From assembly GCA_937921485.1 (NCBI GenBank), contig CAKZSV010000016.1:334-64333 (forward strand): 64,000 nt of DNA, written 5' to 3'. The notes under the pieces were generated by a model. It had not been told where the DNA came from, searched no databases, and saw only the letters and a list, made by a program, of their open reading frames with translations. Source of the stretch: an uncultured bacterium (GTDB lineage Bacteria; Spirochaetota; UBA4802; JAGODF01). Shown here in pieces: positions 17,272-37,558 of the stretch (its first letter is position 1; every line of letters begins with the position of its first letter). Made by a program: the position numbers and the translations under genes.

Positions 17272-17300
17272 AATATATCCATAAGGATTTTTCTTGTCAA
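17272..17300 (-). promoter_or_regulatory. sigma70 promoter of the gal operon with embedded operator
   Basis: TTGACA (17300-17295), 17 nt, TATATT (17277-17272). The motif TATATCCATAAGGATTTT lies at 17274-17291. Confidence 0.7.
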
Positions 17301-17351
17301 TCTTTTCGTGCGATGCCATAATGGATAATTCACCTGATCTGGAGGATAATT

Positions 17352-18338
17352 ATGAAGGAAATACTTGTCACCGGCGGTGCGGGCTATATCGGAAGCCATG
17401 TGGTGAAAATGCTGGCTGAGCGAGGGTATCATCCCATCGTGTTTGATTCGCTGGAAAATGGTTTTGCGGAATTCGTGCGCGGGCATGAACTGGTGCAGGG
17501 AAATATCGGCGATTATGCACTGCTTGCGGATATTTTTCGAAAAAGAAACATCGCATGCGTGATGAATTTTGCATCGTACATCGCCGTGGGAGAATCGGTG
17601 CAGCTTCCGCTGAAATATTATGCCAATAATGTGGCGAACACGTTTGAGCTTTTCCGCGCGATGCTCGACTCTGGGGTGAAGCGCTTCATTTTTTCATCGA
17701 CGGCGGCGGTGTACGGCTATCCGGAGGAGGTACCCATCAGGGAGAACGCGAAGCTTTCGCCAATCAATCCCTACGGGCGAACGAAGCTCATGATTGAGCA
17801 GGCACTGCAGGATATTGATGCGGCATCCGGGATGAAATTCATCGCGCTACGCTATTTCAACGCGGCAGGGGCGGATCCAGGCGGCAACATCGGCGAAAGC
17901 CATACCCCCGAGACGCATCTGATTCCGCTTATCCTGCGTTCCATTTTGGAAGACGAGTACACTATCACGGTGTTCGGCACGGATTACCGCACGCACGATG
18001 GCACCTGCATCCGCGATTATATTCACGTCAACGATCTTGCCGATGCGCACATTTTGGCGCTTGAGACGCTTGTATCAAAAGGTGAAAGCGCCGTGTATAA
18101 TCTTGGCAATGGCCGCGGATTTACCGTGCGCGAGGTGATTGATGCGGTGAAGCGGGTTACAGGAAAAAACCCGAAGGTGAAGGAAGGCCCGCGGCGGCCG
18201 GGAGATCCCGATGTGCTGGTGGCATCATCCGAAGAAGCGATGGCGGAACTCGGGTGGAAACCGCAGATGGCGGAGCTTGAGACAATCGTGGAAACGGCGT
18301 GGCGGTGGGAACGGCAGAGAAAGCGAAAGGGGTGGTGA
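17352..18338 (+). CDS. galE: UDP-glucose 4-epimerase
   Basis: TGGAGYIGSH, FSSTAAVYG, YGRTK, DGTCIRDYIHV. Confidence 0.96.
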   Translation: MKEILVTGGAGYIGSHVVKMLAERGYHPIVFDSLENGFAEFVRGHELVQGNIGDYALLADIFRKRNIACVMNFASYIAVGESVQLPLKYYANNVANTFELFRAMLDSGVKRFIFSSTAAVYGYPEEVPIRENAKLSPINPYGRTKLMIEQALQDIDAASGMKFIALRYFNAAGADPGGNIGESHTPETHLIPLILRSILEDEYTITVFGTDYRTHDGTCIRDYIHVNDLADAHILALETLVSKGESAVYNLGNGRGFTVREVIDAVKRVTGKNPKVKEGPRRPGDPDVLVASSEEAMAELGWKPQMAELETIVETAWRWERQRKRKGW

Positions 18339-18391
18339 TGGCAGGGGAAGGGAAAATGACTTCGGAAGGGAAACCGGCTAATGCATCGAGC

Positions 18392-18670
18392 TTATTGCAC
18401 GATGTTTCCCCACTCTTCCGGGAATGGCAGTTTATTGGCTTTATAGTAAAGAATTATAGGGTCATAGTCAAGTCCATTTTCCCAGCAGATGACTTTTATT
18501 TCTGGATGGATTTCCACTTTTTTAAAAAGATTAATATCGGATAGTGTGTGATAAGGCTTAACTGATTGTATAACATTTCTGAAGTCAACTTCTCCGCCGG
18601 TTCCATCCTCGAATTTTACATAGATTATGTATTCTTTAATATATTTTACATGCGCAGGATCATAGTACAT
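18392..18670 (-). CDS. DUF2442-family protein (putative TA partner)
   Basis: VKFEDG...WENGLDYDP pattern; paired with DUF4160. Confidence 0.85.
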   Translation of the reverse strand: MYYDPAHVKYIKEYIIYVKFEDGTGGEVDFRNVIQSVKPYHTLSDINLFKKVEIHPEIKVICWENGLDYDPIILYYKANKLPFPEEWGNIVQ

Positions 18671-18682
18671 GGCATTCCCCCA

Positions 18683-22718: not shown

Positions 22719-22724
22719 ATCATT

Positions 22725-22840: not shown

Positions 22841-23569
22841 TTACGAACGCAGCATCATTATCGCGATGATCAGCAGCATGGTAATGACGATGCGTTTGAA
22901 TCGTTCCGCGTCGATGCGCGTATTGATGAAGTTCCCCGCGAACATGCCGGTAAAAATAATTGGAATGAGCATGCTCCACAGAAAAAGCACATCGGCAGTG
23001 TACAGTCCCCGCGCGGCATGGCCCGCACCGATGAGAAATGCTGAGGAAAGAAAAAATCCCTGAAGATTTGCTATCGTTCGGTCCTTATCCCATTGCTGAA
23101 GCGCGGCATGCACAATTACCGGCGGTCCGTTGATATTGAACGCAGCGCCAAGGCTGCCGGCAAGGAATCCGAAAACATACGACCACCTGCGGGATACCGG
23201 TTTTGCGGGAAGCAATCCCGCAAGCGAATACACAGAAAAAAGAATTATCAGCGAAGCAAGAATTTTTCGCAAGATTTGCTCATCCAGATAGGTGAGAATG
23301 AAAATGCCAAAAGGAACTCCCACCGCGGCGCTTGCCAGAAGCGGAATGAGTTCCCGCAGATTGACATGCTTTCGTTTGACAATAAAGAGCATGGCGGTAA
23401 GCGCCAGTCCGTTTAAAAGCACCAGAGGTGTGACGATGCGAAGCGGAAGCATAAAAGGAAGAATCGCCATCGATACAAGCGCCTGCCCGAAACCGGAAAC
23501 GCCCTGCACAAAGGACGCGAAAAGCACCACGAGGGCGATGATGATGTAGAGCACTGCTTCACCGGTCAT
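22841..23569 (-). CDS. TauE/SafE sulfonate/sulfite exporter
   Basis: SFVQGVSGFG and GAAFNINGPP motifs, about 8 TMs. Confidence 0.88.
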   Translation of the reverse strand: MTGEAVLYIIIALVVLFASFVQGVSGFGQALVSMAILPFMLPLRIVTPLVLLNGLALTAMLFIVKRKHVNLRELIPLLASAAVGVPFGIFILTYLDEQILRKILASLIILFSVYSLAGLLPAKPVSRRWSYVFGFLAGSLGAAFNINGPPVIVHAALQQWDKDRTIANLQGFFLSSAFLIGAGHAARGLYTADVLFLWSMLIPIIFTGMFAGNFINTRIDAERFKRIVITMLLIIAIMMLRS

Positions 23570-23777
23570 TGGGGGTTCCTGTTTGAAAAGCTGTGCAAGC
23601 GTTATTGTGCTGCAGCAAAATGTCAATGGTATTTCCGGTGCAGTTTCCACTGCGGGGAAATTGCTGGATGCCGATTAAAATGAAGTCGATGTGTAATCCG
23701 TTGCACATGGCCAGGAAATCTTATTGACACCCCGTGATGTTGGAATATTCCTTACGCATAAGAGGTGGCAGGAATAT

Positions 23778-24236
23778 ATGATTCATTTTGAACGCATACC
23801 CGATGATATTGACGCGCGTATTGAAGAACTCAAGCAGGCGCTCCTGCGCGATCCAAATATTGTATTTGCCTATCTCTTTGGGGGGTTGGCAAAGGGTGTG
23901 AAAAAGCCGTTGTCGGATGTTGACATTGCAGTGTTTGTGAACGACATGTCGAACCTTGCCGAATATACCATGAATCTCTTTTTAGATTTTTCAAATATTC
24001 TTCACACATCGGAAATAGATATCGTCATTTTGAATGTTGCGCCTGAAAGCATTGCAGGCCGTATTTTGCAGCATAAGAAGCTGTTAGTTGATAAAAAGCC
24101 TTTACAACGGCATCTGTACGAATCTGTCACATTGAGAAAATATTTTGATTTTGCAGTAAAAGAAAAACAGATACTCTACAGGAGGTACAAGATTGGTCGA
24201 TTCATCCCTCATTCTTCGCAAGATATCAGAACTTGA
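23778..24236 (+). CDS. MntA-like nucleotidyltransferase antitoxin
   Basis: AYLFGG...SDVDIAV; overlaps the HepT gene. Confidence 0.88.
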   Translation: MIHFERIPDDIDARIEELKQALLRDPNIVFAYLFGGLAKGVKKPLSDVDIAVFVNDMSNLAEYTMNLFLDFSNILHTSEIDIVILNVAPESIAGRILQHKKLLVDKKPLQRHLYESVTLRKYFDFAVKEKQILYRRYKIGRFIPHSSQDIRT

Positions 24237-24618
24237 AACGTATTATGTACAGATTAAAGAATTTAAGGATCTTACGTATGATGCCTATGTATCTGATTGG
24301 AAGACGCAGCGAATAGTTGAGCGAACATTACAGTTGATGATTGAGATGTGCGCTGATATAGCAAATCACATCATTTCAGATGCGGAATTGCGTACTCCGC
24401 AGACATATGCGGACACATTCAAGGTATTATTCGAAAATAAGATCATTGATGAAGCGCTGCGCGATGTAATGATTAAAATGGCGAAATTCCGTAATATCAT
24501 TGTACATCAGTATGAACGCGTGGACGCTGAAATAGTCATTGGCATTGTAAAAAAACACGTAGATGATGTGCTGCAGTACCGAAATGCCATTATGCAATAC
24601 ATTCAGGAGCGCGAATGA
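24193..24618 (+). CDS. HepT-like HEPN RNase toxin (DUF86)
   Basis: ERTLQ...FRNIIVHQY (Rx4HxY). Confidence 0.92.
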   Translation: MVDSSLILRKISELETYYVQIKEFKDLTYDAYVSDWKTQRIVERTLQLMIEMCADIANHIISDAELRTPQTYADTFKVLFENKIIDEALRDVMIKMAKFRNIIVHQYERVDAEIVIGIVKKHVDDVLQYRNAIMQYIQERE

Positions 24619-24676: not shown

Positions 24677-25150
24677 TTACTTAAAATTCTTTTTCTCCAT
24701 TTCCCGAATCTCTTCGTAGCAATTTTTCAAGAATTTCTGCCATTCCTCTTCAAAGCCTTCGCCGAATTTCGTGGCAAGCCAGGCATCCACGATTTCCGCG
24801 GCGTGCTGTGGCGGAGTGAGCCACTCGGCAAGCACCAGCACGTTGGCATTGTTCACCGATGAAGCGCGCTTTCCTTCGAAGGTATTGGTGCAGTGCACGG
24901 CATGGACGCCGGGAAATTTGTTTGCCACGATGGCGCTTCCGGCGCCTGTTCCGCAGATGATGATGGCTTTCTCGTATGTTCCTTCCGAAACTGCCTTTGC
25001 CACATTGGCCGCGGCGATGTGATACGGAACGAATTCCCCGCCTTCCTTCATTCCCAGATCGTCAACCGTATGGCCTTTTTTCTCAAGGTGCGCAATCATT
25101 TCTTTTTTGAGTGCCAATCCTGCGCGCGTGCTTCCAATTGCAAATTTCAT
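24677..25150 (-). CDS. RpiB/LacAB family isomerase; putative 4-deoxy-4-sulfoerythrose isomerase (SqwI-like)
   Basis: ICGTGAG, ANKFPG, NNANVL. The specific function is inferred from context. Confidence 0.85.
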   Translation of the reverse strand: MKFAIGSTRAGLALKKEMIAHLEKKGHTVDDLGMKEGGEFVPYHIAAANVAKAVSEGTYEKAIIICGTGAGSAIVANKFPGVHAVHCTNTFEGKRASSVNNANVLVLAEWLTPPQHAAEIVDAWLATKFGEGFEEEWQKFLKNCYEEIREMEKKNFK

Positions 25151-25154
25151 ACTC

Positions 25155-26111
25155 TCACTCCTGAATTCCGTTTTTTCGCACAATTGAAGCTGCCGCTTCA
25201 ACGATGTGTGGTATGCCGAAGCCGTGCTTGTTGAACAGGTATTCCTCCGTGGCTACCTCGCCGAATTTATCGGGAACTCCCAGCCGCTTCACGCGCACGG
25301 GGTATTGCTCTGAGAGCACCTCGCAGATGGCGCCGCCAAGGCCTCCGATAATATTTTGATTTTCAACGGTCACCACCGCGCCGGTTTTCTTCGCCGATGC
25401 GATGATGGCCTTTTCATCGAGCGGCTTCACCGAAGGAAAGTGCAGCACCTCGGCGCTAATGCCTTTTTTCGAAAGCTCATCCGCGGCTTTCAATGCGAAC
25501 TGCGTCATGTAGCCGGTGGCGGCAATTGTCACATCCGTGCCTTCGCGAAGAAGCGCCGCTTTGCCGGGTTCGAACTGGTAGCCTTCATTGAAAATCTGCG
25601 GCACCACCGAACGTACGAGCTGCATGTAGGTGGGCTGTTTTGATTTTGCCATGAATTTCATCGCGCTGCGAAGTTCAAACGGATCGCAGGGGCTGTAGAC
25701 ATGCATGTTCGGCATCGCGCGCATGATGGCAAGATCCTGAAAGCACATGTGCGTACCGCCGTTTGGCCCCTGGGTGATGCCGGGGGCGGTACCCACAATC
25801 TTCACGTTTGTGTTGGCGTACGCCACGCTGATGGTAATCTGATCGTACACGCGGCGTGACGCGAAACAGGTAAAGCTTGCGCAGAAGGGAATTTTCCCCT
25901 CAACGGCCATGCCCGCGGCAATGCCAATCATGTTGGCTTCGGATACGCCCACGTTGATGAAATTCTTCGGATGCTTCTCGAGCACTGCCGGATTCGTTCC
26001 TGAGGCTTTCGATAAATCTGCTTCCAGGCAATACACATTGGGATTTTCTTCAATGAGTTCGTTTAAGGTGTGCGCGTACACAAGGCGCATTTCCATTTTT
26101 GCATAGTCCAT
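25155..26111 (-). CDS. Transketolase C-terminal subunit (SqwH-like)
   Basis: NVGVSEANM, GPNGGTH, SVKPLD. Confidence 0.93.
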   Translation of the reverse strand: MDYAKMEMRLVYAHTLNELIEENPNVYCLEADLSKASGTNPAVLEKHPKNFINVGVSEANMIGIAAGMAVEGKIPFCASFTCFASRRVYDQITISVAYANTNVKIVGTAPGITQGPNGGTHMCFQDLAIMRAMPNMHVYSPCDPFELRSAMKFMAKSKQPTYMQLVRSVVPQIFNEGYQFEPGKAALLREGTDVTIAATGYMTQFALKAADELSKKGISAEVLHFPSVKPLDEKAIIASAKKTGAVVTVENQNIIGGLGGAICEVLSEQYPVRVKRLGVPDKFGEVATEEYLFNKHGFGIPHIVEAAASIVRKNGIQE

Positions 26112-26113
26112 GA

Positions 26114-26977
26114 CTAATCCTCGCAATAATTAAGTTCGTGATCGTGCGGAATACCTTCAATGACTTTCCGGTAGGTGGCTTCATCGGGCACCTTGATGTT
26201 GTGGCTTGAAACCTGATTTTCGTACTGGCAATGGCACTTTGCTTTGATAGTGTGTGCGATGATCATCCTGGGTTTGCCTTTTACCTCGCTGGCGCGGTTG
26301 ATGGTTTCATATATCGCATGCCAATCGTGGCCGTCCATCTCAAACACTTCCCATCCGAAGGCGCGCCACTTATCGGCCAGCGGCTCGAGCGTCAGAACAT
26401 CATCAGTGCGCCCGTCGATCTGTAATTTATTATAATCGCAGATGGCGATAAGATTATCGAGCTTATGATGTCCCGCAAAAAGCGCGGCTTCCCAGATCTG
26501 CCCTTCGTTGCTCTCTCCGTCTCCAATGATGCAAAATACGCGGTGATTTTTACCGTCCTTTTTCGCGGCCACTGCCATGCCGATTGCACAGGAAAGGCCC
26601 TGGCCGAGAGAACCCGCGGTCATATCGATGCCCGGCGTCTGAATGCGGTCAACATGGCTGGGAAGTCTCGTGCCGTCTTTATTGAGCGTCCCGAGCCACG
26701 ATTTTGGAAAGAACCCTTTCAGTGCAAGTGCCACATAGAGCACCGGACCCGCGTGCCCTTTGGAAAGCACCAGACGGTCGCGCTCATCCCACAGCGGATT
26801 TTTCGGATCAGTTTTCATGATGCGGTAGTACAGGGTGATGATGACCTCGACGAGCGAAAGCGCGCCGCCCAGATGTCCCGAGCCTGCCTTGCAGATCATG
26901 TCGGTGATGATGAAACGGAAGTCCTTCGCCAGTTTTTCAAGTTCGGCTTTGCCGGGTGTTTCGTGTGATGAATTCAT
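26114..26977 (-). CDS. Transketolase N-terminal subunit (SqwG-like)
   Basis: GHLGG, LSKGH, GSLGQG, GDGE...N TPP motif. Confidence 0.93.
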   Translation of the reverse strand: MNSSHETPGKAELEKLAKDFRFIITDMICKAGSGHLGGALSLVEVIITLYYRIMKTDPKNPLWDERDRLVLSKGHAGPVLYVALALKGFFPKSWLGTLNKDGTRLPSHVDRIQTPGIDMTAGSLGQGLSCAIGMAVAAKKDGKNHRVFCIIGDGESNEGQIWEAALFAGHHKLDNLIAICDYNKLQIDGRTDDVLTLEPLADKWRAFGWEVFEMDGHDWHAIYETINRASEVKGKPRMIIAHTIKAKCHCQYENQVSSHNIKVPDEATYRKVIEGIPHDHELNYCED

Positions 26978-26989
26978 CAATGCCTCCAA

Positions 26990-28462
26990 TTAAATGATGT
27001 GAAGCGCGCCGCCTAAAAAATACACGGATAGCGCGACGCAGAGTGATGCCAGAAGCGTCATGAATACGCCCACCTTTGCCATGTCGGTGATGGTGAAATA
27101 CCCCGACGAGTAGGGAATGACATTGGTGGGCGTGGAACTTACTAAAATGAATGAAAGCGACGAGGTGATGCCGGCCGGAATGGCCAGAAGCGCGGGGCTG
27201 ATATTCGTCGTTTTCGCGAGCGCAATGAGAAGCGGCACCACGATGATGCCGGTAACTGTGTTGCTTGAAAACATCACCTTCATCAGCGCCACGCCGACAG
27301 TGATGATGAAGACGATCGCGAACGGATGCAGCGAACCGATGGAGCCGAAGAGCACGTAGGCAATCCATTGAGCTGCGCCGGTTTTATAAATGGCCATGCC
27401 GAGTGAAAGGCCAGTGACGATCAGCACGATGCCGCCCCAGCTTATTTCGCTTTCGGCCTGCTTCCAGCTAAGCACGTCGATTCCCGGCAGGAAAAAAAGG
27501 CAGGCGCAGGCGAACGCCACAAAGGAAATTTCGAGATAGTCAATCGTGCCGCCCGTCCAGCTTTTGATAAACGGCTCGCAGATCCACAGCGCAATGGTGA
27601 TGAAAAAAATTGAAATGACCATGAGTTCTTTTCTGGTGATGGAGCCCATGTCTTTTTTGCGCGCTTCGTACTCTTCGCGGGAGATGGAAAGCGCGATTTT
27701 TTCCGGCGGAAAAAAATAGAGCAAAAGCCACCAGGCGAATGGAATCATCATGAGCGCTGCGGGAAAGCCGATAAGGCTCCAGTCGAGAAACGTGAAATGA
27801 ATACCCGCTAAATCGCGCAAAAAACCCATGGTGAGGGGATTTGGCCCGCAGCCGGCGGGAGTGGCAATGCCGCCAATGAGCGGCCCCCATGCGGCGGCTA
27901 TCATCAGCGCCTTGCCGAAATTGCTTTTCAGCTTTTCTGCGCCCGCGTCGCGAAGAATGCCAAGGCCAAGCGGCAGAAGCATCGCAGCCACAGCCATGTC
28001 GGTAATCCATGCGGAAAGCAAAGCCCCCGCTGTTAGAAAGACGAGCACAATGAGCGAAGGGCGGTGGCCGAGTTTAAACAGCATGAAGGATGTGACGCGC
28101 CTCATGAGCGTGGTGGCATTGATTGCTGCAGAGAGAATGAGTACCCCGATAAAAAACAGCACGATGGAATTTCCGAAGCCGTCGGCCACCAGATTTTTAA
28201 ACGTGTCCACCTTTAAAATTGTAAGCAGCGCAAGCGAGATGAGTCCCGCGATGGGGAAGGGAACCGCTTCCGTGACCCAGAGGATGACCGTAAATGCCAT
28301 GACCGCAAGCGATGCTTTTCCCTTCGCGGTGAGCGCAATGGCCTGTTCCCCGGCCTGAACCGGCGATGCGTCGGGAAGAAACATAATAATTGCGAATGCG
28401 AGAATTGCGAGCATACAATATGCGTACCGCCGGTTTTCACGCCAGAATTGCGCGATGCTCAT
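26990..28462 (-). CDS. DASS/SLC13 family anion transporter
   Basis: WVTEAVP, GGIATPAG, SSNT and STPTN motifs; many TMs. Confidence 0.9.
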   Translation of the reverse strand: MSIAQFWRENRRYAYCMLAILAFAIIMFLPDASPVQAGEQAIALTAKGKASLAVMAFTVILWVTEAVPFPIAGLISLALLTILKVDTFKNLVADGFGNSIVLFFIGVLILSAAINATTLMRRVTSFMLFKLGHRPSLIVLVFLTAGALLSAWITDMAVAAMLLPLGLGILRDAGAEKLKSNFGKALMIAAAWGPLIGGIATPAGCGPNPLTMGFLRDLAGIHFTFLDWSLIGFPAALMMIPFAWWLLLYFFPPEKIALSISREEYEARKKDMGSITRKELMVISIFFITIALWICEPFIKSWTGGTIDYLEISFVAFACACLFFLPGIDVLSWKQAESEISWGGIVLIVTGLSLGMAIYKTGAAQWIAYVLFGSIGSLHPFAIVFIITVGVALMKVMFSSNTVTGIIVVPLLIALAKTTNISPALLAIPAGITSSLSFILVSSTPTNVIPYSSGYFTITDMAKVGVFMTLLASLCVALSVYFLGGALHII

Positions 28463-28465
28463 AGA

Positions 28466-30280
28466 TTAATCCTTCAATGAAAGTTTTCGAAGCGCTTCAT
28501 CGGTGGGAATGCCATTTTCATCCCAGCCGCGAAGCCTGTAGTAGCAATCGAGTTGCGCGCGCAGAGCTTCGTCCGGCACGTATCGTCCCTTCGCGGGGCC
28601 GTCGGGAATCGGTTCGTTCATCACGCGCGCGGGAAGCGTGTCGCGCTCACGGGAAACGCCGCGCGCAATATTGATACACCGTTCGAGCGTGTAGATGCGC
28701 GCGCCCGCTTGTGAAAGATCTTCTACGCTGAAATCCCATCCGGTGAGGAAGTTGAATGCCCCGGCAAGGGATTCGTTGATGAGCCTTCCAAAGCCGCGCT
28801 CCATGGTGAAGCGGCACATTACCAGAGAGTCGCCGAGCGCGGTGAAGTTCTGGCTTTCCACGCAGTATTTCGCGATTTCTTCCGCGCTCATTTCAAAGTC
28901 CGGCTGAGGATAGCGCGGGCGCGCGTCGTGATGGCTTCCGCCGCGGTTTGAGGTGGCATACGCCAATCCCATCGTGCGTATGCCGCGCGCGGAGTGCCCG
29001 GCGATTTCAAGGCCTTTTACCGAATAGAGATACTCGTGTGCGTTTTTGCCTATGTGCGCGGCCATCTTTTCCGAGCCAAGCGATAAAAGCTCACCAGCCC
29101 CGCGGCGGTAGGCGGTATCATTGATCAGGGATATAAGTGCCTCACCATTTCCGAAAAGCATCGTTGTGCCAAAGAGCTTTTCATCGCAAAGCCCTTTTTC
29201 AAGGCATTCCGCCGCGAACGCGAGCGTCACGCCCATGGAGATGGTATCAAGTCCGAGTTCGTCGCAGAGGGTATTTGCATTGAAAAGCGAAACGATGTCT
29301 GCATTATCGCACATGGTGGCCAGGGCGTAAATGCTTTCGAATTCGGGCATCTTCACATTCGTGCCTGCAAATCTTCCCGAGGGGACCATCACCAATTTGC
29401 CGCACGCAACGGGACAGAGGCGGCAGGCGATATTTTTTACTTTGAATTCGCGCGCCATGCGCTCGCCGCTTATCGCTTCCCACTCGGGGAAAACTTCGTA
29501 CTGATTATTCCTGGAAGCGAGCATCCCGCGGTCGTTAATGATTTTCACCAGCACCGGCGTGCCAAGCTCAATGAGTTCTTTCGTCTGGTCACGAAGTATG
29601 GGAAGGCGGCTTTTTAAAAATTCAGACAGGCGTTCGCGATGAGCGATGTCGGCTTTTTCGTTTCCGTTTACAACTATCGCTTTGAGGTTTTTTGAACCCA
29701 TGACCGCGCCCAGACCGAGCCTTCCGGCCGCACTGATGCGCGCTCCGCTCGCGATGACGGCCGCGAAAGGAACGAGATTTTCACCTGCCGGCCCAATCAC
29801 CGCGCATTCGATGCTGCTGCCTTCGCGTTCTTTCAGCGCCGCGATTGCTTTCGAGGTTTCCAGCCCCCAAAGGGTATCTGCTTCATGGAAGCTTGCGCCG
29901 CTTTCATCAATGCGCAGATAGACGCGTGAAGAAGCGTTACCGGTGATTGCGATTGCATCAAAACCGGTTGCTTTAAGCATGGACGCGAAGTTTCCGCCGA
30001 AGTTGGAATCGCCAAAGAGGCCGGTTTGGGGGGAGATTGCCGCCGCATGCGCCCTTCCGGAACCCCAGATGGGGGAACCGGTAAAGGGGCCGCTTGCAAA
30101 CACAAGGATGTTTTTTTCTGAGAAGGCATCATCGGCAGGCGATACTTCGCGGCCGATGATATCGGCAGCAAAGCCATTTCCGCCGATGAATTTCTTCGCG
30201 TACGCCTCGTCGAATTTTTCGATACGCGAAGATTGCGAAGAAAGGTCGATGCGCAGCATCTTTCCGAAATAGCCATTCAT
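28466..30280 (-). CDS. Aldehyde:ferredoxin oxidoreductase (W/Mo-bisPTT AOR family)
   Basis: IGPAGEN, GRLGLGAVMGSKNLKA, CRLCPVACGK, DELGLDTIS, DSLVMCRF, YYRLRGWD. Confidence 0.94.
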   Translation of the reverse strand: MNGYFGKMLRIDLSSQSSRIEKFDEAYAKKFIGGNGFAADIIGREVSPADDAFSEKNILVFASGPFTGSPIWGSGRAHAAAISPQTGLFGDSNFGGNFASMLKATGFDAIAITGNASSRVYLRIDESGASFHEADTLWGLETSKAIAALKEREGSSIECAVIGPAGENLVPFAAVIASGARISAAGRLGLGAVMGSKNLKAIVVNGNEKADIAHRERLSEFLKSRLPILRDQTKELIELGTPVLVKIINDRGMLASRNNQYEVFPEWEAISGERMAREFKVKNIACRLCPVACGKLVMVPSGRFAGTNVKMPEFESIYALATMCDNADIVSLFNANTLCDELGLDTISMGVTLAFAAECLEKGLCDEKLFGTTMLFGNGEALISLINDTAYRRGAGELLSLGSEKMAAHIGKNAHEYLYSVKGLEIAGHSARGIRTMGLAYATSNRGGSHHDARPRYPQPDFEMSAEEIAKYCVESQNFTALGDSLVMCRFTMERGFGRLINESLAGAFNFLTGWDFSVEDLSQAGARIYTLERCINIARGVSRERDTLPARVMNEPIPDGPAKGRYVPDEALRAQLDCYYRLRGWDENGIPTDEALRKLSLKD

Positions 30281-30306
30281 ATCAGTGAATCCCACATTGT
30301 GATGTC

Positions 30307-30335
30307 AATATAAATCCATAACGATTTATTGTCAA
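30307..30335 (-). promoter_or_regulatory. sigma70 promoter of the AOR-DASS-TK-RpiB operon with embedded operator
   Basis: TTGACA (30335-30330), 17 nt, TATATT (30312-30307). The motif TAAATCCATAACGATTTA lies at 30311-30328. Confidence 0.75.
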
Positions 30336-30577: not shown

Positions 30578-30690
30578 GGGCACTTCTAAAAACCGCTTTC
30601 GTCATTAAAAATAGCATCATAGAAAGCGGTTTTTTCCCATACATTATGCTCAAAAGGGAACATCCTTTAAAACAGTTTTAAGAAGTTCCC
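30578..30690. mobile_element. MITE-like repeat, copy 2 (inverted relative to copy 1)
   Basis: GGGCACTTCTAAAAACCGCTTTC...GAAAGCGGTTTT...GGGAACATCC...TTAAGAAGTTCCC. Confidence 0.8.
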
Positions 30691-30717
30691 TTATAATTTA
30701 AATTTAACGGAGGGGAT

Positions 30718-30861
30718 ATGTTTAGTAATAAAAGTATTGTCGCGAGAGGATTTGTTTTTGCTCTGGTTTTCGTTTTTATCTTTGCTTTGGGATGCAAGAC
30801 ATTCAAGGACGTCGAGCGTGAATCAATACCCGTGAGACCGGCTTCATCAAACTCTAACTAA
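30718..30861 (+). CDS. Small lipoprotein (47 aa)
   Basis: GGAGGG RBS; MFSNKSIVARGFVFALVFVFIFALGCKTFKDVERESIPVRPASSNSN with ALGC lipobox. Below the ORF-track length cutoff. Confidence 0.7.
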   Translation: MFSNKSIVARGFVFALVFVFIFALGCKTFKDVERESIPVRPASSNSN

Positions 30862-30891
30862 AAAATTTATTTTCACGAGAGGAAATCTGAT

Positions 30892-31704
30892 ATGAAAAAT
30901 TATTCGAATTTTGTATGTTTCGCACTTATTTTGCTATTCTTTGTTGGGAATTGCAGTTTTACTCCTTCATCGCCCGTGTTGATCGTTGATAACAAACACG
31001 TGCAAGGCGGGAAAAATATTGTTATCAAAGTTGATTCAAAGCCAATTACGTATGATGGGACTACTGTTATAGGTGTACCTGGCGCAGGAAAGGAAACCGC
31101 TACGGCAGTAATATACCAGGATGCGACAGGTAAATTTGTGACAGAATACAGCAATACGAATCAAATTGTAAATAGTCACATAGAATGGGTTCAAGCAGCA
31201 AAAGATGCAAAGTATATCCGACTTGTGATATCACGAATGTTTTATTATAAGGACAATGTTTCTGAAATATTGAGGTATGCCTGCCTTTTGCCAACGCTCG
31301 GTTATTCATTTTTATTGTTTAATCCCGAGTCTTATTCTGATCATATATCTTTTGGGGAAGGCGGAGTAGGTGATGGTTCTGATATTACTCTTAATTTTGT
31401 ACTTAAAAAAGATTTCGATATCATGCTTACAGTAAGCAACATGGGTAACATGGAGTTAAAACAGCCCTTTATCATAAGCGATACTCTCCCGGATTATATG
31501 CTCTTTAAAAATGCCAAATACTATGCCAGCGGTGGAGTAGCAAAAGTGACTTATGATAACCACAAGATGGGAAACAATCAGAGCCTGGTTTTTAAGGTTT
31601 ATCCGAACGAATCAGGTTTTGGTCAATATCAGACTGTTCAAATAAAACTTACGATTAGTCCCGATCTTTCAAAATTTCTAAATGACTATAAGGTTAACAA
31701 TTAA
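30892..31704 (+). CDS. Putative lipoprotein with DUF11-like C-terminal Ig domain
   Basis: Signal peptide ending FVGNC; LTVSNMGN...IISDTLP motif; AT-rich. Confidence 0.7.
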   Translation: MKNYSNFVCFALILLFFVGNCSFTPSSPVLIVDNKHVQGGKNIVIKVDSKPITYDGTTVIGVPGAGKETATAVIYQDATGKFVTEYSNTNQIVNSHIEWVQAAKDAKYIRLVISRMFYYKDNVSEILRYACLLPTLGYSFLLFNPESYSDHISFGEGGVGDGSDITLNFVLKKDFDIMLTVSNMGNMELKQPFIISDTLPDYMLFKNAKYYASGGVAKVTYDNHKMGNNQSLVFKVYPNESGFGQYQTVQIKLTISPDLSKFLNDYKVNN

Positions 31705-31711
31705 TTCCTGC

Positions 31712-31750
31712 AAAGAGGGGACTTTGAAAATGAGAAGTCCCCTCTTTTTT
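31712..31750 (+). terminator. Intrinsic terminator
   Basis: AAAGAGGGGACTT...AAGTCCCCTCTTT stem followed by a T-run. Confidence 0.8.
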
Positions 31751-31823
31751 GTTGCTATATCATTGCCTTTAATAAAAAACATTATAGTACCCTCTAACCG
31801 CTTCCTTCCAACCCCAAAGCTGT

Positions 31824-32237
31824 TTACATCTCCGACAGCAATTTTTGCCTCGCCGATTCAATATGCCGCATCGCTTCCTGCGCGTGCATCAAAAGCTCCT
31901 TCGCGTCATCGGACGTGATGCTGTCGAAATCTCCGTAGTCGGCATCGGTGCGATGTGAAAGCAGATTTTTATATGTTTTGATTACTGATTGCGGCAAGAT
32001 GCCTTTTTTTATAAAATGCAGGCTCAGCATGGTGATGATGCCTTCATGCGTTTCGGGATTTGATCCTGCTAAAATGAGAAGGGCGCGTGCGGCGTTGAGC
32101 ACTGCATAATAGCTTCTGTTGATCGAAGTTCGGTATAATCCTCCGCTGAGCGTTTTTTCTGCATCGGAAATGAAACCATCGGCCTTATCCATCCGGACAT
32201 TGCTTAACTGCTTTTTTTCTTCGATTGAAAGCGTCAT
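31824..32237 (-). CDS. HEPN domain protein (UPF0332-like)
   Basis: NRSYYA...THEG...RTDADY. Confidence 0.9.
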   Translation of the reverse strand: MTLSIEEKKQLSNVRMDKADGFISDAEKTLSGGLYRTSINRSYYAVLNAARALLILAGSNPETHEGIITMLSLHFIKKGILPQSVIKTYKNLLSHRTDADYGDFDSITSDDAKELLMHAQEAMRHIESARQKLLSEM

Positions 32238-32557
32238 ACGGATATTCCCTCGCGTGTGATATTCTGATAGAAAGGCGTATTGCAGGCGCGTTCCTGTGCA
32301 AAAGCGCCTGCGTCTTTTATAAGTGGCGAAAAAGAAAGTCCGCGCTTCTCTTCGATATCAACGATGATGTCAATAATTTTCTGCTGTTTCTGCGGCGTTC
32401 GATTGCGGACAATAATCAGTATATCGAAATCCGATGAATCTGAGAAATCTCCGCGCACTCTCGAACCGAACGCAACGATCTGTTCAATATCATCGCCAAA
32501 TTCTTTGCGAAGCGATCGGGAAATTTCTTTCAGAGCGTTTCGTTCATGGGTGAACAT
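32234..32557 (-). CDS. MNT nucleotidyltransferase
   Basis: FGSRVRGD...SDFDIL; 4-bp overlap with the HEPN gene. Confidence 0.9.
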   Translation of the reverse strand: MFTHERNALKEISRSLRKEFGDDIEQIVAFGSRVRGDFSDSSDFDILIIVRNRTPQKQQKIIDIIVDIEEKRGLSFSPLIKDAGAFAQERACNTPFYQNITREGISV

Positions 32558-32641
32558 GCCCCATGTATGCCGTACATTGCAGGGCATGTCAAGGATATAA
32601 CGATTTTGCACGTGAATAATTATCGATTTGTTTCCCGATAG

Positions 32642-34633
32642 CTACATATCCCTCACCTTCTCAAACACCACCGAGAAATCCGAGCCGCTTCGGTAAAACA
32701 CCGGCGGATAGCCGATGGGCGCATCAACAGTGTGCGTGCCTGCCGGATATGCTTTGCCGCTCCAGAGATGAATCCACACATCATCGGGCAGTATCACCTT
32801 CCAGCGCCGCTTCCCTTTGCGCAGCACCGGCGCCACGAGCAGATCGCGGCCGTAGAGATATTCGTATTGCACATTCAGAAACTTCGCATCGTCATAATGC
32901 ATAAAAATGGGACGTACAGGCGGAAGACCACTCTCTTGATATTCGTTTGAAAGATGCATATGATAATCCCGCAGTGCGACAAAGATGCGGGTGAAGCGCG
33001 CAAAATGCGCAAGTGTTGCCGCATCGGAATCGAATTGCCAGTTGGAGGCGGGGCGATTTCCTTCGTGTGTGCGCATTGTCTGCGTGAAGGCAGCCTGTTC
33101 GGTCCATCGCATGAACAGCTCTTTGGAGCGGCGAATCCACCCGACGGTGGTATAGCCGCCGATGTCCGAATGATGATACCCGATGCCGCACATCCCGAGC
33201 GAAAGCGCTGCGGGAATCACGGTTGCAAGCCCGTCGTCGAAGCTCCAGTTGACGAGCTGATCGCCCGCCCAGATGCTTGCGGCGTACCGCGAACTTCCCG
33301 TGAAACCTGCGCGCATAAAATAAAAAATGTCGTTTTCTTTTTGTGCTTCGCGCACCGCCTCGAAGTTTGCTTTTGCCCACATGGCAGGATAGCGGTTATG
33401 ATACCGCTCGGCATTTTCTTTTGAAAAGAGAATTGCATCGGGGGGAAGCGCTTCGCCGAAATCGGCCATCCATCCAGAAAGGCCAAGCGCGATCATCTCC
33501 TGTGTGATGACGCTTTTATACCAGGTGCATGCCGAGGGATTGGTGAAATCGATCATGCCGGCGAAAAATTCGCCGAAATCTTCGGTGTAGGTGCTTCCAT
33601 CGGCGCGCAGCACTAAAAACCCGCGGTCAGCGGCTTCGCGGAAAAGCGGCGCGTCAGTTGCAAGGTAGGGATTGATGTATCCCAGAAAACGGATGCCGCG
33701 CTCGCGGTATTCCTTAATCTTTTCATCCAGCTTTGGGTACAGCGCTTTATTCCATTGCCAGTTCCAGAACAGCCGCTTGCCGAATGAGGTCATGCGCATG
33801 CCTTCCCAGTCCTGTGCCCACACCGCGGCAATTTTCGCACCGGCGGAAATCGCGTTTTTCAATTTCGCGTCGATTACCCCGGTGCCGCCCTGCATGCCGA
33901 GTATTGCGCCGCCATAGACCCAGTGCGGAAGCGGCCGTTGCCGGCCGACAAGCGCGCTCAGTCGCTGCAAAAGCGCCGGACGGGAAGGAGCAGTTCCAAG
34001 GATGATATTTTCCGGAATATGCCGGAAATGCAGAATGTGATAATCTTTTCCGGTGAAATCGAACTCCGCGTAGGCGGACTCATCTGAGTGGCAGAAATAC
34101 TGCGCTGAAGAGATGAAGGTCGGCTGATTGAAATACGTGGTGTACCATGTACCGCCTGCGTCGGCCTTGAGATTTGCCAGAAACGTGATGAGGTCTTTGC
34201 CGCGGCCGACGCCCTGTTCCTGCACGAAGATGGGAACGTTTTTTCCCTTTAGATTAAAATACGTATATTGCTCGCCGCAGCCATAAATTCCTTCGCCTGC
34301 TTCTCCGCACAGTTTCAGCCAGAAGCGGTTAATTTCCGCGTCGGCGCAGGAAAAGCGGATTTCCAGCGTGCCGTTTTTTTCTTCGGCAGTCATGGTGAGA
34401 ATATCTTCAAATGAAAGGACCACCCGCGTGGGGGTTGATTCTTTCACCAAAAATTGCGCAAGCGGCTTTTTTTCGCGCACGCTATCGCGGATTTTAAAAT
34501 GGCTATAGCGCATGCGGTATTCCGCCGTACCTTTGCCTGATGAAATGCAGGGATTTTTTTCATTGTGAATAAGAAATGTTCTGCCCTGAAAGCCGAGTTC
34601 AAAGCCGTGATTGTGCGCATTGAATTCAATCAT
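32642..34633 (-). CDS. yihQ: Sulfoquinovosidase, GH31 (YihQ-type)
   Basis: EQGVGR, WAQDWEGMRMTSFGKRLFWNWQW (Q/R/W sulfonate-binding residues), GWMADFGE nucleophile motif, WAGDQ, HSDIGGYT. Confidence 0.9.
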   Translation of the reverse strand: MIEFNAHNHGFELGFQGRTFLIHNEKNPCISSGKGTAEYRMRYSHFKIRDSVREKKPLAQFLVKESTPTRVVLSFEDILTMTAEEKNGTLEIRFSCADAEINRFWLKLCGEAGEGIYGCGEQYTYFNLKGKNVPIFVQEQGVGRGKDLITFLANLKADAGGTWYTTYFNQPTFISSAQYFCHSDESAYAEFDFTGKDYHILHFRHIPENIILGTAPSRPALLQRLSALVGRQRPLPHWVYGGAILGMQGGTGVIDAKLKNAISAGAKIAAVWAQDWEGMRMTSFGKRLFWNWQWNKALYPKLDEKIKEYRERGIRFLGYINPYLATDAPLFREAADRGFLVLRADGSTYTEDFGEFFAGMIDFTNPSACTWYKSVITQEMIALGLSGWMADFGEALPPDAILFSKENAERYHNRYPAMWAKANFEAVREAQKENDIFYFMRAGFTGSSRYAASIWAGDQLVNWSFDDGLATVIPAALSLGMCGIGYHHSDIGGYTTVGWIRRSKELFMRWTEQAAFTQTMRTHEGNRPASNWQFDSDAATLAHFARFTRIFVALRDYHMHLSNEYQESGLPPVRPIFMHYDDAKFLNVQYEYLYGRDLLVAPVLRKGKRRWKVILPDDVWIHLWSGKAYPAGTHTVDAPIGYPPVFYRSGSDFSVVFEKVRDM

Positions 34634-34644
34634 CGATAATCCTT

Positions 34645-35961
34645 TTATTGAATAATTTTCCAGCCGTTTATGCGCCCGAATATTTCCAGAGGACGAATGA
34701 AATCGCCATACGCCATCGACGCGTGATGTGCGATGCCATTGTACACGACTTTTTCGAGCACTTCTTTTACCGGAGCGTCAAATGTTACCTTTACGTAGGT
34801 TCCCCGTAGTTTTTTGTCCATCGGAATTCCATGTGCCCGCTGTAAAAAAATGCGCTGGGCATCTCCGGAGTTATCGAAGCGCAGGATGGAGATATCGCCG
34901 GTTTTCAGCACGAAATCGGCAGTGACGCCTTTCCCGCCGGCGAAATAGGTATCGAGCGAGCGTACGCATTTCCCGTCCCAGAGATTGCAGGGCGCCACGC
35001 CGCAGTGCCACAGTAGCGCGCTATCTTCATCGAAATCGACCTGGGAAAAATCGAAAAGATACGGCGTTTCCGCACCAAGCGCTTTGTGCGCCAGCATTGA
35101 AAGTGCACCCTCTACATCGCCTTCGCAGGCTAAAATTGCGCTTTCGGACTGCACCAGCGACATCGCCGCGCAGGGAGAGGTGCCGTAGCGTGCGGCAAAC
35201 TCCGGCCAACAGCGAATGGCAAGCGCCGAAAGGTTTTCCTGTTTCATAAATGCGTCGATGCGCGCAGCCAGTATCGCAGTTTTTTTTGCCTGTTCTTCGG
35301 TGATGCCGCTCGTATCGAAGGTCTTTTGCACAATATCATTCCAGCGCGATACCTCACTTTCGGAAACAGGCTGTTCGTACACATCCAAAAGCTCGTAGTG
35401 GTCGATGAGCACGCCGAAGCGCGCGTATGCTTCAAGGTCGCGCACGCTCAGATTGAAAAAACCGTGTGCGCGGAATCCCGCAATGCCGATATGCGCCGAC
35501 GAAAGCGCTTTTCGCACGCGAATCGCATCGACCCAGTCGGTATCTATTGAGCGCGACACAATGGCATGATAATTGCGCACGCCTGCTTTGTAGAGGTTGG
35601 ACGCATTCAAATTCACGCCGCAGACGGAATTGAGCCGGATTTTCCCCCCATCGTAGGGAAGCTCGGGAAGTCCCCACAGAAGCACGGGCTGGGGTAGAGC
35701 TTTCTTTAGTTCAAGCAGCAGATGGCCAAGGTGGAATGTGCCGCTTATGCAGACCAGCCCATCGATGTGTTTTTCTGAAAGGAAACGCGCAGCCTTTTTT
35801 GCATCGTCAATTTCGATGACAAGCTCCGGCCAGATGGCGCATTCCGCGCTGGGTAATGTTGCAAGGTCTTTTTTTATCCGGTTGAAAATCTCGCCCGCGG
35901 CATGGTAGTCGAAGGTTTTACGTGCCAGGCAGACGATGCCAAGCGTGATGTGCTGTTTCAT
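34645..35961 (-). CDS. L-fucose/L-arabinose isomerase family; putative SQ isomerase (SqvD-like)
   Basis: RCWPEF, ACEGD, WHCG, GIAHH; lies between the SQase and the GPH transporter. Confidence 0.85.
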   Translation of the reverse strand: MKQHITLGIVCLARKTFDYHAAGEIFNRIKKDLATLPSAECAIWPELVIEIDDAKKAARFLSEKHIDGLVCISGTFHLGHLLLELKKALPQPVLLWGLPELPYDGGKIRLNSVCGVNLNASNLYKAGVRNYHAIVSRSIDTDWVDAIRVRKALSSAHIGIAGFRAHGFFNLSVRDLEAYARFGVLIDHYELLDVYEQPVSESEVSRWNDIVQKTFDTSGITEEQAKKTAILAARIDAFMKQENLSALAIRCWPEFAARYGTSPCAAMSLVQSESAILACEGDVEGALSMLAHKALGAETPYLFDFSQVDFDEDSALLWHCGVAPCNLWDGKCVRSLDTYFAGGKGVTADFVLKTGDISILRFDNSGDAQRIFLQRAHGIPMDKKLRGTYVKVTFDAPVKEVLEKVVYNGIAHHASMAYGDFIRPLEIFGRINGWKIIQ

Positions 35962-35974
35962 GGTGGTACCTCGT

Positions 35975-37456
35975 TTATGTATTCATCAAGCGTTCGTATG
36001 ATTGTCCCGTAAGCTCTTCGCATACGGCACGGGTGCGGCTGTCAACCTCGCTTTTCTTTCCGCCGCTTTTCAGCCGCTCGATTTCTGCGATGAGCACGGC
36101 ATGCGTTTCGGGCGTGATATTGAATTTCCGCGCGATGATGATGCCGAGTACAATGAGCAGAAGCGGCAGGGAGAAGAAAAGGATGCGGAGCCAGAAAAGC
36201 GTGGTTTCCGCCTGCGGCTGGTTGATAGAGCGGCTGATACCGTCGATAATCTCAATAACAGGCTTTTGATAGCCGATGATGTCGAGCATTATGCCGATGA
36301 AGAAAATTGTCAGCGCGTTGACGATTTTACGGATGAAGGTCATCGCGCCCGCGTAGGAGCCCGCGCGCTTTTTGCCGGTAATCATCTCATCGACATCGGT
36401 CACCGAAGGAAGAATTGCCCAGGGCACCATGGTGCCGGCCGAAAGTCCGATGCCCATGAGTCCCGATACGGCAATGATGAGGTAAGGCGATGTTTCTTTG
36501 TTGAAAAATGCAGTGAGGATAAGCCCAACTCCCCAGATGCACAGTCCGACGATGTAGGCAAATCCCTTGCCTTTTTTATTGGAGATGTAAACATATACCG
36601 GAAGCATTGAAACCTGGGCCAGAAGCATCGCGCCGACGCAGGTGGCAAAGAGCTTTTCATTGCCAATATAATACGTGAGATAATAAATAAAAAGCGCCAT
36701 GAGTACATCCATCGCCATATACGAAGCGATGTACATTCCCATGTGCAGGCGAAACGAGCGATTGTGTCGCATGGAAAAAAGTTCCGAGAAAAAGCCGGAA
36801 ATAGTAAGCGAAGGAGCAGACTCGCAGGATTCCATCTCCCATGTGCCGTGGAAGACGATGATCCAGGGAATCATGTAAAAGATGCCGAAGATGACCGACA
36901 TCACCAGAAAGCCTTCGGCTTTATTGTGCGCGAAATAGGTATCGATGATAAGTTTGGGCACCACAGCGCTTACCAGCGATGAAAACTGAGAGCACATCAT
37001 GCGCGCGCCAGAGAGCCGCATCCGGCTTTTGTAATCGCAGGTCATTTCGGCATTCAAAGCGGAATAGGGCACCATGACCATGGTGAACGCGGTGCGGAAA
37101 AGAATGAAGGCGGTTACATAATACAGGAAAGAAAGATAGATGTTATCGAACCGCACGGCCACCCACAGCATGATAAACGTAAGCGCTACCGGCAGCATGC
37201 CTGCGAGAAAATAAATTCTGCGACGGCCGAAGCGGCTTTTCGTGCGGTCGGAAAGATAGCCCATCAGCGGGTCGGAAATGGCATCCCATATTTTTCCGGG
37301 AAGCATCACCAGGCCTGCAAGCGCGGGAGGAAGCCCGACAATGTCGGTGAGAAAGAACATGAAAAGAAGGCTTATGATGAGAAATGAACCGCCGCCGTAA
37401 AAATCGCCCACGCCGTACGCTATGAGATGATACCATCGAAGCGGTCTGTTATCCAT
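35975..37456 (-). CDS. GPH (MelB-like) MFS sugar-glycoside symporter; putative SQ/SQ-glycerol importer
   Basis: AYGVGD, WDAISDPLMGYLSDRT..RFGRRR, VPYSAL. ATG 8 nt after GGAGG. Confidence 0.92.
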   Translation of the reverse strand: MDNRPLRWYHLIAYGVGDFYGGGSFLIISLLFMFFLTDIVGLPPALAGLVMLPGKIWDAISDPLMGYLSDRTKSRFGRRRIYFLAGMLPVALTFIMLWVAVRFDNIYLSFLYYVTAFILFRTAFTMVMVPYSALNAEMTCDYKSRMRLSGARMMCSQFSSLVSAVVPKLIIDTYFAHNKAEGFLVMSVIFGIFYMIPWIIVFHGTWEMESCESAPSLTISGFFSELFSMRHNRSFRLHMGMYIASYMAMDVLMALFIYYLTYYIGNEKLFATCVGAMLLAQVSMLPVYVYISNKKGKGFAYIVGLCIWGVGLILTAFFNKETSPYLIIAVSGLMGIGLSAGTMVPWAILPSVTDVDEMITGKKRAGSYAGAMTFIRKIVNALTIFFIGIMLDIIGYQKPVIEIIDGISRSINQPQAETTLFWLRILFFSLPLLLIVLGIIIARKFNITPETHAVLIAEIERLKSGGKKSEVDSRTRAVCEELTGQSYERLMNT

Positions 37457-37528
37457 GTACACGACCTCCTTTTGGATTTTATCTGGATACTATATCATCA
37501 ACCCATAACCCGTGTGAAGCATAAAACG

Positions 37529-37558
37529 CATATAAATTGATAACGATTTAAATGTCAA
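37529..37558 (-). promoter_or_regulatory. Promoter of the MFS-isomerase-SQase operon with embedded operator
   Basis: TTGACA at 37558-37553; the motif TAAATTGATAACGATTTA lies at 37533-37550; TATAT-type -10. Confidence 0.72.

Follow-up and report, generated by a model that had tools for sequence, protein, structure and literature searches.

Sulfoquinovose (SQ) is a plant sulfosugar, and ROK-family sugar repressors include the B. subtilis-type XylR. The repressor of the sulfo-Embden-Meyerhof-Parnas (sulfo-EMP) cluster of E. coli, CsqR (YihW), belongs instead to the DeoR family and is released by SQ, SQ-glycerol and sulforhamnose (PMC8006165; PMC10991401). The comparative genomics of ROK regulators in PMC3553997 follows the same logic as the present work and describes palindromic ROK motifs. 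The subject here is a stretch of 64,000 nucleotides from an uncultured bacterium of a Leptospirales lineage (contig CAKZSV010000016.1; the window), in which related 18-bp sites lie in the promoters of three catabolic operons: one with galactoside genes (gal), one headed by an aldehyde:ferredoxin oxidoreductase (AOR) and carrying genes of the sulfo-transketolase (sulfo-TK) pathway, and one for SQ uptake and hydrolysis. Comparison with relatives suggests that the three sites are operators of one trans-acting ROK repressor of an SQ regulon, a reading that we consider probable, with appreciable room for doubt.

Direct reading of the sequence found the three 18-mers of the original prediction at the positions given in Table 1. 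TGTCAA, ie TTGACA on the minus strand, is present at 17295-17300, 30330-30335 and 37553-37558, leaving gaps of 3, 1 and 2 nt to the 18-mer. Read on the minus strand, the promoters are TTGACA-AGA-AAAATCCTTATGGATATA for the gal operon, TTGACA-A-TAAATCGTTATGGATTTA for the AOR operon and TTGACA-TT-TAAATCGTTATCAATTTA for the SQ operon, and the flank AACCCTTGACA is common to sites 2 and 3. The 18-mers of sites 1 and 2 take up the whole spacer and extend 2-4 nt into the -10 hexamer, operator 1 covering the gal promoter spacer and 4 nt of the -10. Such a position, within the spacer of a near-consensus promoter, points to occlusion of RNA polymerase. At site 3, TATATG after an 18-nt spacer is the sole -10 available to the TTGACA. 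Of the geometry first proposed, a TTGACA 1-3 nt away is seen at all three sites; the overlap with the -10 agrees with the promoter scan at sites 1 and 2 and is plausible at site 3. The core proposed as an invariant ATAA holds for the seven best sites of this genome and fails in relatives, where ATAT and AAAA occur. Operator 1 also lies immediately upstream of a promoter-like site for the divergent galE-like gene. The gal-operon and galE promoters stand back to back with overlapping -35 hexamers (17294-17300), and one bound factor might affect both.

A matrix made from the three sites was scanned over the whole assembly (84 contigs, 3.15 Mb, 47% G+C), with 20 composition-preserving genomes, shuffled within 60-nt blocks, as the chance control. 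Five positions scored at least 24 bits, namely the three training sites and two new ones, compared with a mean of 0.0 and a maximum of 0 in the shuffles. At 20 bits or more there were six positions in the real genome and a mean of 0.8 (maximum 3) in the shuffles. All five positions of at least 24 bits adjoin TTGACA in intergenic DNA. The matrix picked out few high scorers, in excess over the shuffles, rather than many unrelated promoters at equal score, and the operator motif exceeds chance occurrence. The best scores outside the training set were 27.7 bits (C30:9764, ie contig C30, position 9764), 24.0 (C31:7455), 20.8 (C36:2905) and 19.5 (C26:2028), all others being 18.9 or less. The first of these forms the promoter TTGACA-A-TAAATCCTTATGGATATA before the DUF4867/sqvB gene, a known sulfoglycolysis accessory gene, so that the matrix recovered an SQ gene on a separate contig unprompted. 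Relative to TTGACA the asymmetric core is found both ways round (ATAA or TTAT), at an offset of 1-3 nt, which fits a dimer site independent of the promoter hexamers.

The best-supported further genes that the motif appears to mark are DUF4867/sqvB, a Cys-rich lipoprotein gene (C36:2905) and a 7TMR-DISM/SpoIIE sensor phosphatase gene (C26:2028), with an Omp85-like gene (C31:7455) as a less certain candidate member of the regulon. The C36 site lies over the -10/+1 region of the lipoprotein gene and is kept in the relatives G001 (26.0 bits) and G003 (20.7 bits). The lipoprotein itself, of 263 amino acids (G000:C36, L003:2905-3732, G000 being the genome studied here), has no family match and may be a new regulon member. 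The C26 site, which has only a weak counterpart in G001 (15.8 bits), precedes a 7TMR-DISM/SpoIIE gene orthologous to that of the genus g11. This genome has two paralogous pairs of a 7TMR-DISM/SpoIIE gene and a YchF GTPase gene, one on C26 (L004:2028-5331) with the operator upstream, and one on C30 (L001:3397-6734) just before the DUF4867 promoter. The Omp85-like gene (DUF5982 + Omp85; G000:C31, L002:5547-6875) is preceded by a TTGACA-operator promoter at a distance of 2.1 kb from the ROK gene described below; its site is weakly conserved, and the gene brings to mind OmpL, the porin of the SQ cluster in E. coli (PMC8006165). Three other positions, which came from the matrix of other-family sites described below, are not claimed as sites. 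The one at C30:22668, ahead of a chemoreceptor gene, persists in G001 alone (15.6 bits), with no counterpart in G002 or G003. That at C60:17752, ahead of a Metallophos_2 gene, has a counterpart in G001 (20.6 bits); none was seen in G002, and the locus was not found in G003. The third, C12:103277, lies inside an IS200-like gene.

The operator sites are conserved in orthologous promoters while their flanks diverge, the exceptions being gal, which is genus-specific, and the C31 site, which is not found in locus L033. G001, the closest relative, keeps all three, site 3 in identical form. G002 and G003 are more diverged (DNA identity 72-79% in the gal region, 68-74% in the AOR region); both keep the gal and AOR promoter sites, and G003 also keeps the DUF4867 site. 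Operator 1 is matched at 16/18 positions in G002 and 18/18 in G003, with diverging flanks, and operator 2 at 17/18 and 16/18; the same variant as operator 3 is also present after TTGACA in G002:C55 and G003:C15, as judged by pattern match alone. Against G003, the 18-mers compared are identical at 18/18, 16/18 and 18/18 positions, compared with 11/39, 16/40 and 15/31 in the 30 nt upstream of the -35 and 32/67, 42/59 and 35/56 after the -10. The AOR operon is linked to the SQ genes by the operator, as first proposed, and the link is conserved in G001-G003. The proposed link between galactoside and SQ genes was seen in this genus only, the DUF6937/6938 gene of g11 being solitary and without a site; the galactoside link is specific to this genus.

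In other families of the same taxonomic order, orthologues of the MFS transporter gene (55-64% identity) have the motif directly after an upstream TTGACA, as in TTGACA-T-ATTATCGATAACGATTTT and TTGACA-A-TATATCGATAACGATATA, and this was so in all eight evaluable genomes with an orthologue of the ROK gene (L005, L006, L009-L011, L013-L015). No site was found in the loci examined in G020 and G011, which have an MFS orthologue and no ROK orthologue. The motif also precedes the operon of DASS, transketolase and RpiB genes in G016/L026, L035, L037 and L038, and the 7TMR-DISM/SpoIIE gene in 5/5 loci of the g11 type, where 2-3 nt separate it from a TTGAT(T/A) hexamer downstream. The family-wide consensus, TAAATCGAT.ATCGATTTA, is a perfect palindrome. 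Its centre varies (ATAA, TTAT, ATAT) and its arms may read ATCC/GGAT in this genus, a combination never seen on both arms together in g11 sites. Hybrid arms, with ATCC on one side and CGAT on the other, occur in the AOR and C26 sites and in the AOR site of G003, and would argue for one tolerant factor. A second matrix, built only from sites of other families, scored the AOR and SQ sites at 21.0 bits each, rank 4-5 genome-wide. It was noisier than the first, giving nine positions of at least 17 bits compared with 2.15 in the shuffles; its positions on C68, C3 and C34 and at C6:22230 lie inside open reading frames (ORFs) and are not claimed.

The original prediction had seen no regulator gene in the catabolic region and placed the regulator in trans. 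In agreement, no transcription-factor family was found among the ORFs scanned from 1243 to 49368 of the window (the ORFs of 49649-63853 and the partial ORF of 1-1236 lay outside the scan), and the candidate regulator lies on another contig. A 270-amino-acid ORF at 30892-31704 was considered as a regulator and rejected, as it looks lipoprotein-like; it has no family match. A candidate transcription factor conserved together with the operator was found through other families, in which a NagC/Mlc-like ROK gene adjoins the same operator; the MFS operon of G016 and that of G035 each have as divergent neighbour a gene for a ROK-family protein of about 400 amino acids. The orthologue in this genome, at G000:C31:9619-10830 on the minus strand, encodes 404 amino acids counted from MAFGSRID. 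Its product is 43% and 47% identical over the full length to the G016 and G035 proteins, the next-best match in the genome being 22%. In nine distinct genomes the ROK gene and the SQ operon are divergently oriented, and the motif lies in the spacer between them (G016, G022, G027=L035, G032=L037, G035=L034, G037, L036, L038 and L040; L039=G016 is again the same genome, identities being judged from identical contexts). A scan of species-representative genomes with the ROK alignment gave 12 loci, in metagenome-assembled genomes of Leptospira, Leptospirales and Spirochaetota, in one of Planctomycetota and in one Longirhabdus strain. The Planctomycetota locus (L041, ROK 38% identical) has no SQ genes and no site. 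In g11 genomes a 7TMR-DISM/SpoIIE sensor phosphatase gene with its own operator lies beside the ROK gene.

The G000 protein matches PF00480 with an E-value of 3.6e-22 (2.6e-18 and 6.8e-16 for the two orthologues), and no Pfam helix-turn-helix model matched it at E 0.001. The NagC and Mlc models align to it from residues 8 and 6, with scores far under their cut-offs, and alignment with the chains of two ROK repressors of solved structure, Lmo0178 and Mlc, begins at residues 11 and 6. The segment in which we take the kinase ATP motif DxGxT to lie reads LGITFNQ, as placed by eye rather than from a computed kinase alignment. A linker GR (G68, R69) and the zinc motif CxCGRxGCLD (C252, C254, G255, R256, G258, C259, L260, D261) are invariant in the 14 orthologues aligned. 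The linker GR is described as a feature of ROK regulators (PMC4288165), and a kept zinc motif CxCGxxGCxE/D together with an altered kinase DxGxT is given as the criterion for a ROK regulator (PMC3553997). The G000 protein has the features of a regulator: a ROK domain, an N-terminal winged-helix region with the GR linker, the zinc motif and an altered kinase motif. Orthology to NagC or Mlc was rejected, as the scores were 83 bits compared with 650 for NagC and 78.3 compared with 530 for Mlc, and the operator lacks TT-N9-AA. By these alignments the protein is of a different ROK subgroup from NagC/Mlc.

Co-occurrence of the ROK gene and the motif was followed in 41 relatives including G000, of which 11 were ROK-positive (orthologue at E 1e-40 or better) and 30 negative. 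The composite pattern TTGACA-N1-3-WWWATCSWTWWSRATWWW was present in 10 of the 11 ROK-positive genomes and in none of the 30 negative ones, and a reversed control pattern had no match in any genome. The bare 16-mer WWATCSATAWSGATWW was rejected as a phyletic marker because it matches 30 of the 41 genomes, and was replaced by the composite pattern. In G023, whose ROK homologue is 48% identical, the TTGACA promoter of that ROK gene contains a variant palindrome with an extra central base, AAATCGGTCGCCGATAAAT (L065:9940-9970). No SQ genes and no standard site were found in the 20 kb of that locus, which may reflect diverged specificity.

From these comparisons we infer ROK binding to the sites, repression and the identity of the inducer. 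Each operator would occupy the -35/-10 spacer of a sigma-70-type promoter, those of the gal, AOR-DASS-transketolase-RpiB and MFS-SftI-YihQ operons. The predicted regulator, the NagC/Mlc-like protein from G000:C31:9619-10830, would as a dimer over the spacer exclude RNA polymerase. A sulfosugar (SQ, its glycerol glycoside or sulfofructose) held in the ROK sugar domain would release it. The release by a bound sugar is suggested by the family of the protein, and a sulfosugar as the inducer by the conserved core of the regulon, limited in g11 to SQ genes and the sensor phosphatase.

Several observations weigh against a single ROK repressor. Within this genus the ROK gene and the operons are unlinked. 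No site was found upstream of the gene (best score 1.1 bits), and autoregulation in this genome was rejected on that score; the C31 site is 2.1 kb away, with a 5'-nucleotidase-like gene between; it is weak in L032 (18.3 bits), and L033 lacks it. The ROK-positive genomes come down to three genera (g1, g11 and g22) in three families plus G023, so that the counts are not independent, and G023 is ROK-positive without a composite match, having only the variant with one extra spacing base. The bare 16-mer also occurs in ROK-negative genomes, where 14 of the 15 matches examined (in three such genomes) are inside ORFs. The -10 of site 3 is poor and its TTGACA promoter is absent from the promoter-scan list, the scan giving TTCACA-18-TATAGT at 37518..37489 instead; in G001 the TTGACA-operator-TATATG block is kept and this alternative is not. 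The site before the 7TMR-SpoIIE gene, being upstream of a -35-like hexamer, gives no clear repressor position. With the matrix from other families the gal and DUF4867 sites score 14.0 and 15.2 bits, ranks 30 and 20 among 156 positions of at least 9 bits, and are outscored by several positions inside ORFs. A gal link outside the genus was not found: in G016 and G022 the DUF6937/6938 homologue stands by itself and lacks a site, and the query used gave no such gene in G035, G020 or G011. Outside the genus DUF4867 was found only in G011, where it has no site.

Some of these points would suit one trans-acting factor that is not the ROK protein, whose adjacency to the SQ operon in other families would then reflect another role, for example in sensing or as a kinase-like protein. 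The ROK gene is not near the operons in this genus and has no site upstream of it, and the operator is even-symmetric (ATCG-N4-CGAT), without the TT-N9-AA of NagC/Mlc (PMC4288165). However, no other transcription-factor family lies beside the sites in the loci examined, the composite motif tracks the ROK gene across positive and negative genomes, and the N-terminal DNA-binding region of the protein aligns to NagC, Mlc and Lmo0178. A kinase-like role is also at odds with the stretch GITFNQ at the presumed position of DxGxT. We regard a factor other than the ROK protein as unlikely.

It is also rather improbable that the ROK protein binds as an activator, or as a dual regulator, at some or all of the promoters. 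The near-consensus promoters whose spacers are filled by sites 1 and 2 and by the DUF4867 site should have no need of an activator, and the ROK regulators described in PMC3553997 and PMC4288165 act as repressors. Activation would sit more easily with the 7TMR-DISM/SpoIIE site, 2-3 nt upstream of its -35-like hexamer, and with the weak -10 of site 3, which might need help.

The low scores with the matrix from other families mean that the ATCC/GGAT sites could belong to a second factor. The single operator would then be a family resemblance between two related factors, one for ATCG..CGAT (SQ operons) and one for ATCC..GGAT (gal, DUF4867 and C31). The gal and DUF4867 sites do fall well below the 21.0 bits of the SQ and AOR sites, and double ATCC/GGAT arms are not seen in g11. 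Against such a division stand the hybrid-arm sites (AOR, C26 and the G003 AOR site), the gal-type arms borne by DUF4867, itself an SQ-pathway gene, and the presence in G000 of one close ROK homologue only, and two factors seem very improbable. The least probable explanation, which we give hardly any credence, is that no factor binds and that the sites are either copies of a duplicated promoter module or a spacer sequence that the polymerase favours: the flank shared by sites 2 and 3 and the conservation to be expected of the hexamers in any case would fit, but the spacer sequence is kept across families with unrelated flanks, the motif is palindromic, its core occurs in both orientations at 1-3 nt from TTGACA, and it is also found outside spacers, before a -35 and over a -10/+1.

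The genes behind the sites are listed in Table 1. The AOR and SQ operons correspond to the sulfo-TK pathway described in PMC9594981.

Table 1. Operators, promoters and operons of the window, with the basis of each assignment
Feature	Position	Strand	Description	Basis
Operator 1, gal operon	17274..17291		TATATCCATAAGGATTTT; arms ATCC/GGAT around ATAA	26.76 bits, three-site matrix
Operator 2, AOR/sulfo-TK operon	30311..30328		TAAATCCATAACGATTTA; hybrid arms ATCC/CGAT	29.51 bits, three-site matrix
Operator 3, SQ uptake/hydrolysis operon	37533..37550		TAAATTGATAACGATTTA	27.51 bits, three-site matrix
Sigma-70-type promoter, gal operon	17272..17300	-	-35 TTGACA 17300-17295, 17-nt spacer, -10 TATATT 17277-17272	Promoter scan, 11/12 consensus
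Sigma-70-type promoter, AOR operon	30307..30335	-	TTGACA-17-TATATT	Promoter scan, 11/12 consensus
Putative promoter with weak -10, SQ operon	37529..37558	-	TTGACA 37558-37553, 18-nt spacer, TATATG 37534-37529	Read from sequence
Promoter-like site, divergent galE	17294..17322	+	TTGTCA-17-CATAAT with TG, 10/12	Consensus match alone
gal operon	10549..17183	-	DUF6937/DUF6938 protein, galactokinase, glycosidase, GH42	Pfam; start 17183 read from sequence
DUF6937/DUF6938 protein	15735-17183	-		Pfam
Galactokinase	14570-15742	-		Pfam
Clan GH31/melibiase-like glycosidase	12552-14573	-		Pfam
GH42 beta-galactosidase	10549-12546	-		Pfam
galE-like NAD-dependent epimerase	17352..18338	+	Divergent from gal operon	PF01370, E 2.3e-58
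AOR/sulfo-TK operon	24677..30280	-		Pfam and NCBIfam
Aldehyde:ferredoxin oxidoreductase (AOR)	28466-30280	-	Heads operon 24677..30280	
DASS anion symporter	26990-28462	-		Pfam/NCBIfam
Transketolase, N half	26114-26989	-		Pfam/NCBIfam
Transketolase, C half	25155-26126	-		Pfam/NCBIfam
RpiB/SqwI-like isomerase	24677-25201	-		Pfam/NCBIfam
SQ operon	32642..37456	-		Pfam, NCBIfam
MFS_2 transporter	35975-37456	-		Pfam
SftI-like SQ isomerase	34645-35961	-		NF048012, E 9.7e-56, under equivalog cut-off
YihQ-type GH31 sulfoquinovosidase	32642-34633	-		PRK10426, 886.6 bits vs cut-off 553

The start of the AOR gene is probably the ATG at 30280 (MNGYFGK, kept in G001-G003) and not the GTG at 30295 of the mechanical ORF call, which would leave a leader of about 20 nt. 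Sequence of low GC (0.40, compared with about 0.5 around it) at 30300-31800, which holds the 270-amino-acid ORF, separates the AOR promoter from a toxin-antitoxin pair and is possibly an insertion. HEPN/nucleotidyltransferase (toxin-antitoxin-like) gene pairs are interleaved with the catabolic operons at 9805-10507, 23724-24618 and 31824-32611. Between the gal and sulfo-TK units, at 22841-23650, is a gene for a TauE/SafE-type sulfite exporter, near which no operator was detected. Just upstream of the SQ-operon promoter, at 37581-37649, are three copies of GCTCTGACCCC. These repeats were rejected as an element of the regulon, since the genome has 56 copies, which are not regulon-specific; some are in regular clusters (65-67 nt, on C13 and C80) that look like repetitive extragenic palindromes or clustered regularly interspaced short palindromic repeats, and a copy is also found upstream of the DUF4867 promoter of G003.

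Taken together, the features permit a wider reading, which we put forward as tentative and, in its full extent, doubtful. The ROK repressor would be a dedicated sulfosugar sensor, the first of its family. In this Leptospirales genus its regulon would have expanded to the head groups of thylakoid lipids, jointly inducing SQ-glycerol uptake and hydrolysis, sulfo-TK, the catabolism of alpha- and beta-galactosides (galactolipid head groups), the sensor phosphatase, and an AOR of the tungsten/molybdenum type that oxidises sulfoacetaldehyde to sulfoacetate, an undescribed ferredoxin-linked end of sulfo-TK. Judging from the shared operator, these uncultured Leptospirales may handle the head groups of sulfolipids and of galactolipids as a single class of substrate, which bears on the carbon and sulfur cycling of photosynthetic biomass. 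In this lineage the operator is evidence, independent of gene order, that the AOR belongs to SQ metabolism, and it serves as a sequence tag for scattered genes of the pathway, such as those for DUF4867/SqvB, the lipoprotein and the sensor phosphatase.

As a pathway, the genes compare most closely with the sulfo-TK clusters of Clostridia (SqwGH, SqwI, SqvB, SqvD/SftI and YihQ; PMC9594981), with which they share the split transketolase, the RpiB-like and SftI-like proteins, YihQ and DUF4867. The clostridial clusters have the SqwF reductase or an NAD-dependent dehydrogenase, whereas here an AOR heads the TK operon; the genes here are split over at least three transcription units joined only by the operator, and the host is of a Leptospirales lineage. 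A full-text literature search (subscription journals and supplements lay outside it) found no related report of SQ catabolism in Leptospira or other Leptospirales and no ROK or NagC regulator of SQ catabolism.

The sole regulator of SQ catabolism found in the literature searched is the DeoR-type CsqR (PMC8006165), and the operator described here offers a testable second type. CsqR is a local repressor of SQ catabolic operons, as the candidate here would be. CsqR, however, is a DeoR protein that binds cooperatively along the yihUV spacer and serves a sulfo-EMP pathway (PMC8006165), whereas the candidate here is a ROK protein of a sulfo-TK pathway. A repressor of the CsqR/DeoR type encoded with the SQ genes was also considered, and no DeoR domain was found among the scanned ORFs of the window or in the SQ loci of relatives examined, the whole genome not having been searched for DeoR.

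The mechanism itself would be the textbook one of a ROK repressor on a palindromic operator in a promoter spacer. The candidate has the same architecture as NagC and Mlc of E. coli, Lmo0178 and the regulators of the Thermotoga ROK regulons, with an N-terminal winged helix, a GR linker and a ROK sugar domain with the zinc motif. With the ROK sugar repressors the system further shares palindromic AT-rich operators over sugar-catabolic promoters, a small regulon of transporters and catabolic enzymes, and a regulator gene that in most relatives is divergent from its target. It differs in that the targets here are SQ genes, and in its operator, which is ATCG-N4-CGAT with even symmetry within 18 bp, compared with the 23-bp form with TT-N9-AA given for NagC/Mlc in PMC4288165. 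The system appears to work like a local repressor of the NagC/Mlc/XylR type, as an orthologue of none of them and with an operator of different symmetry.

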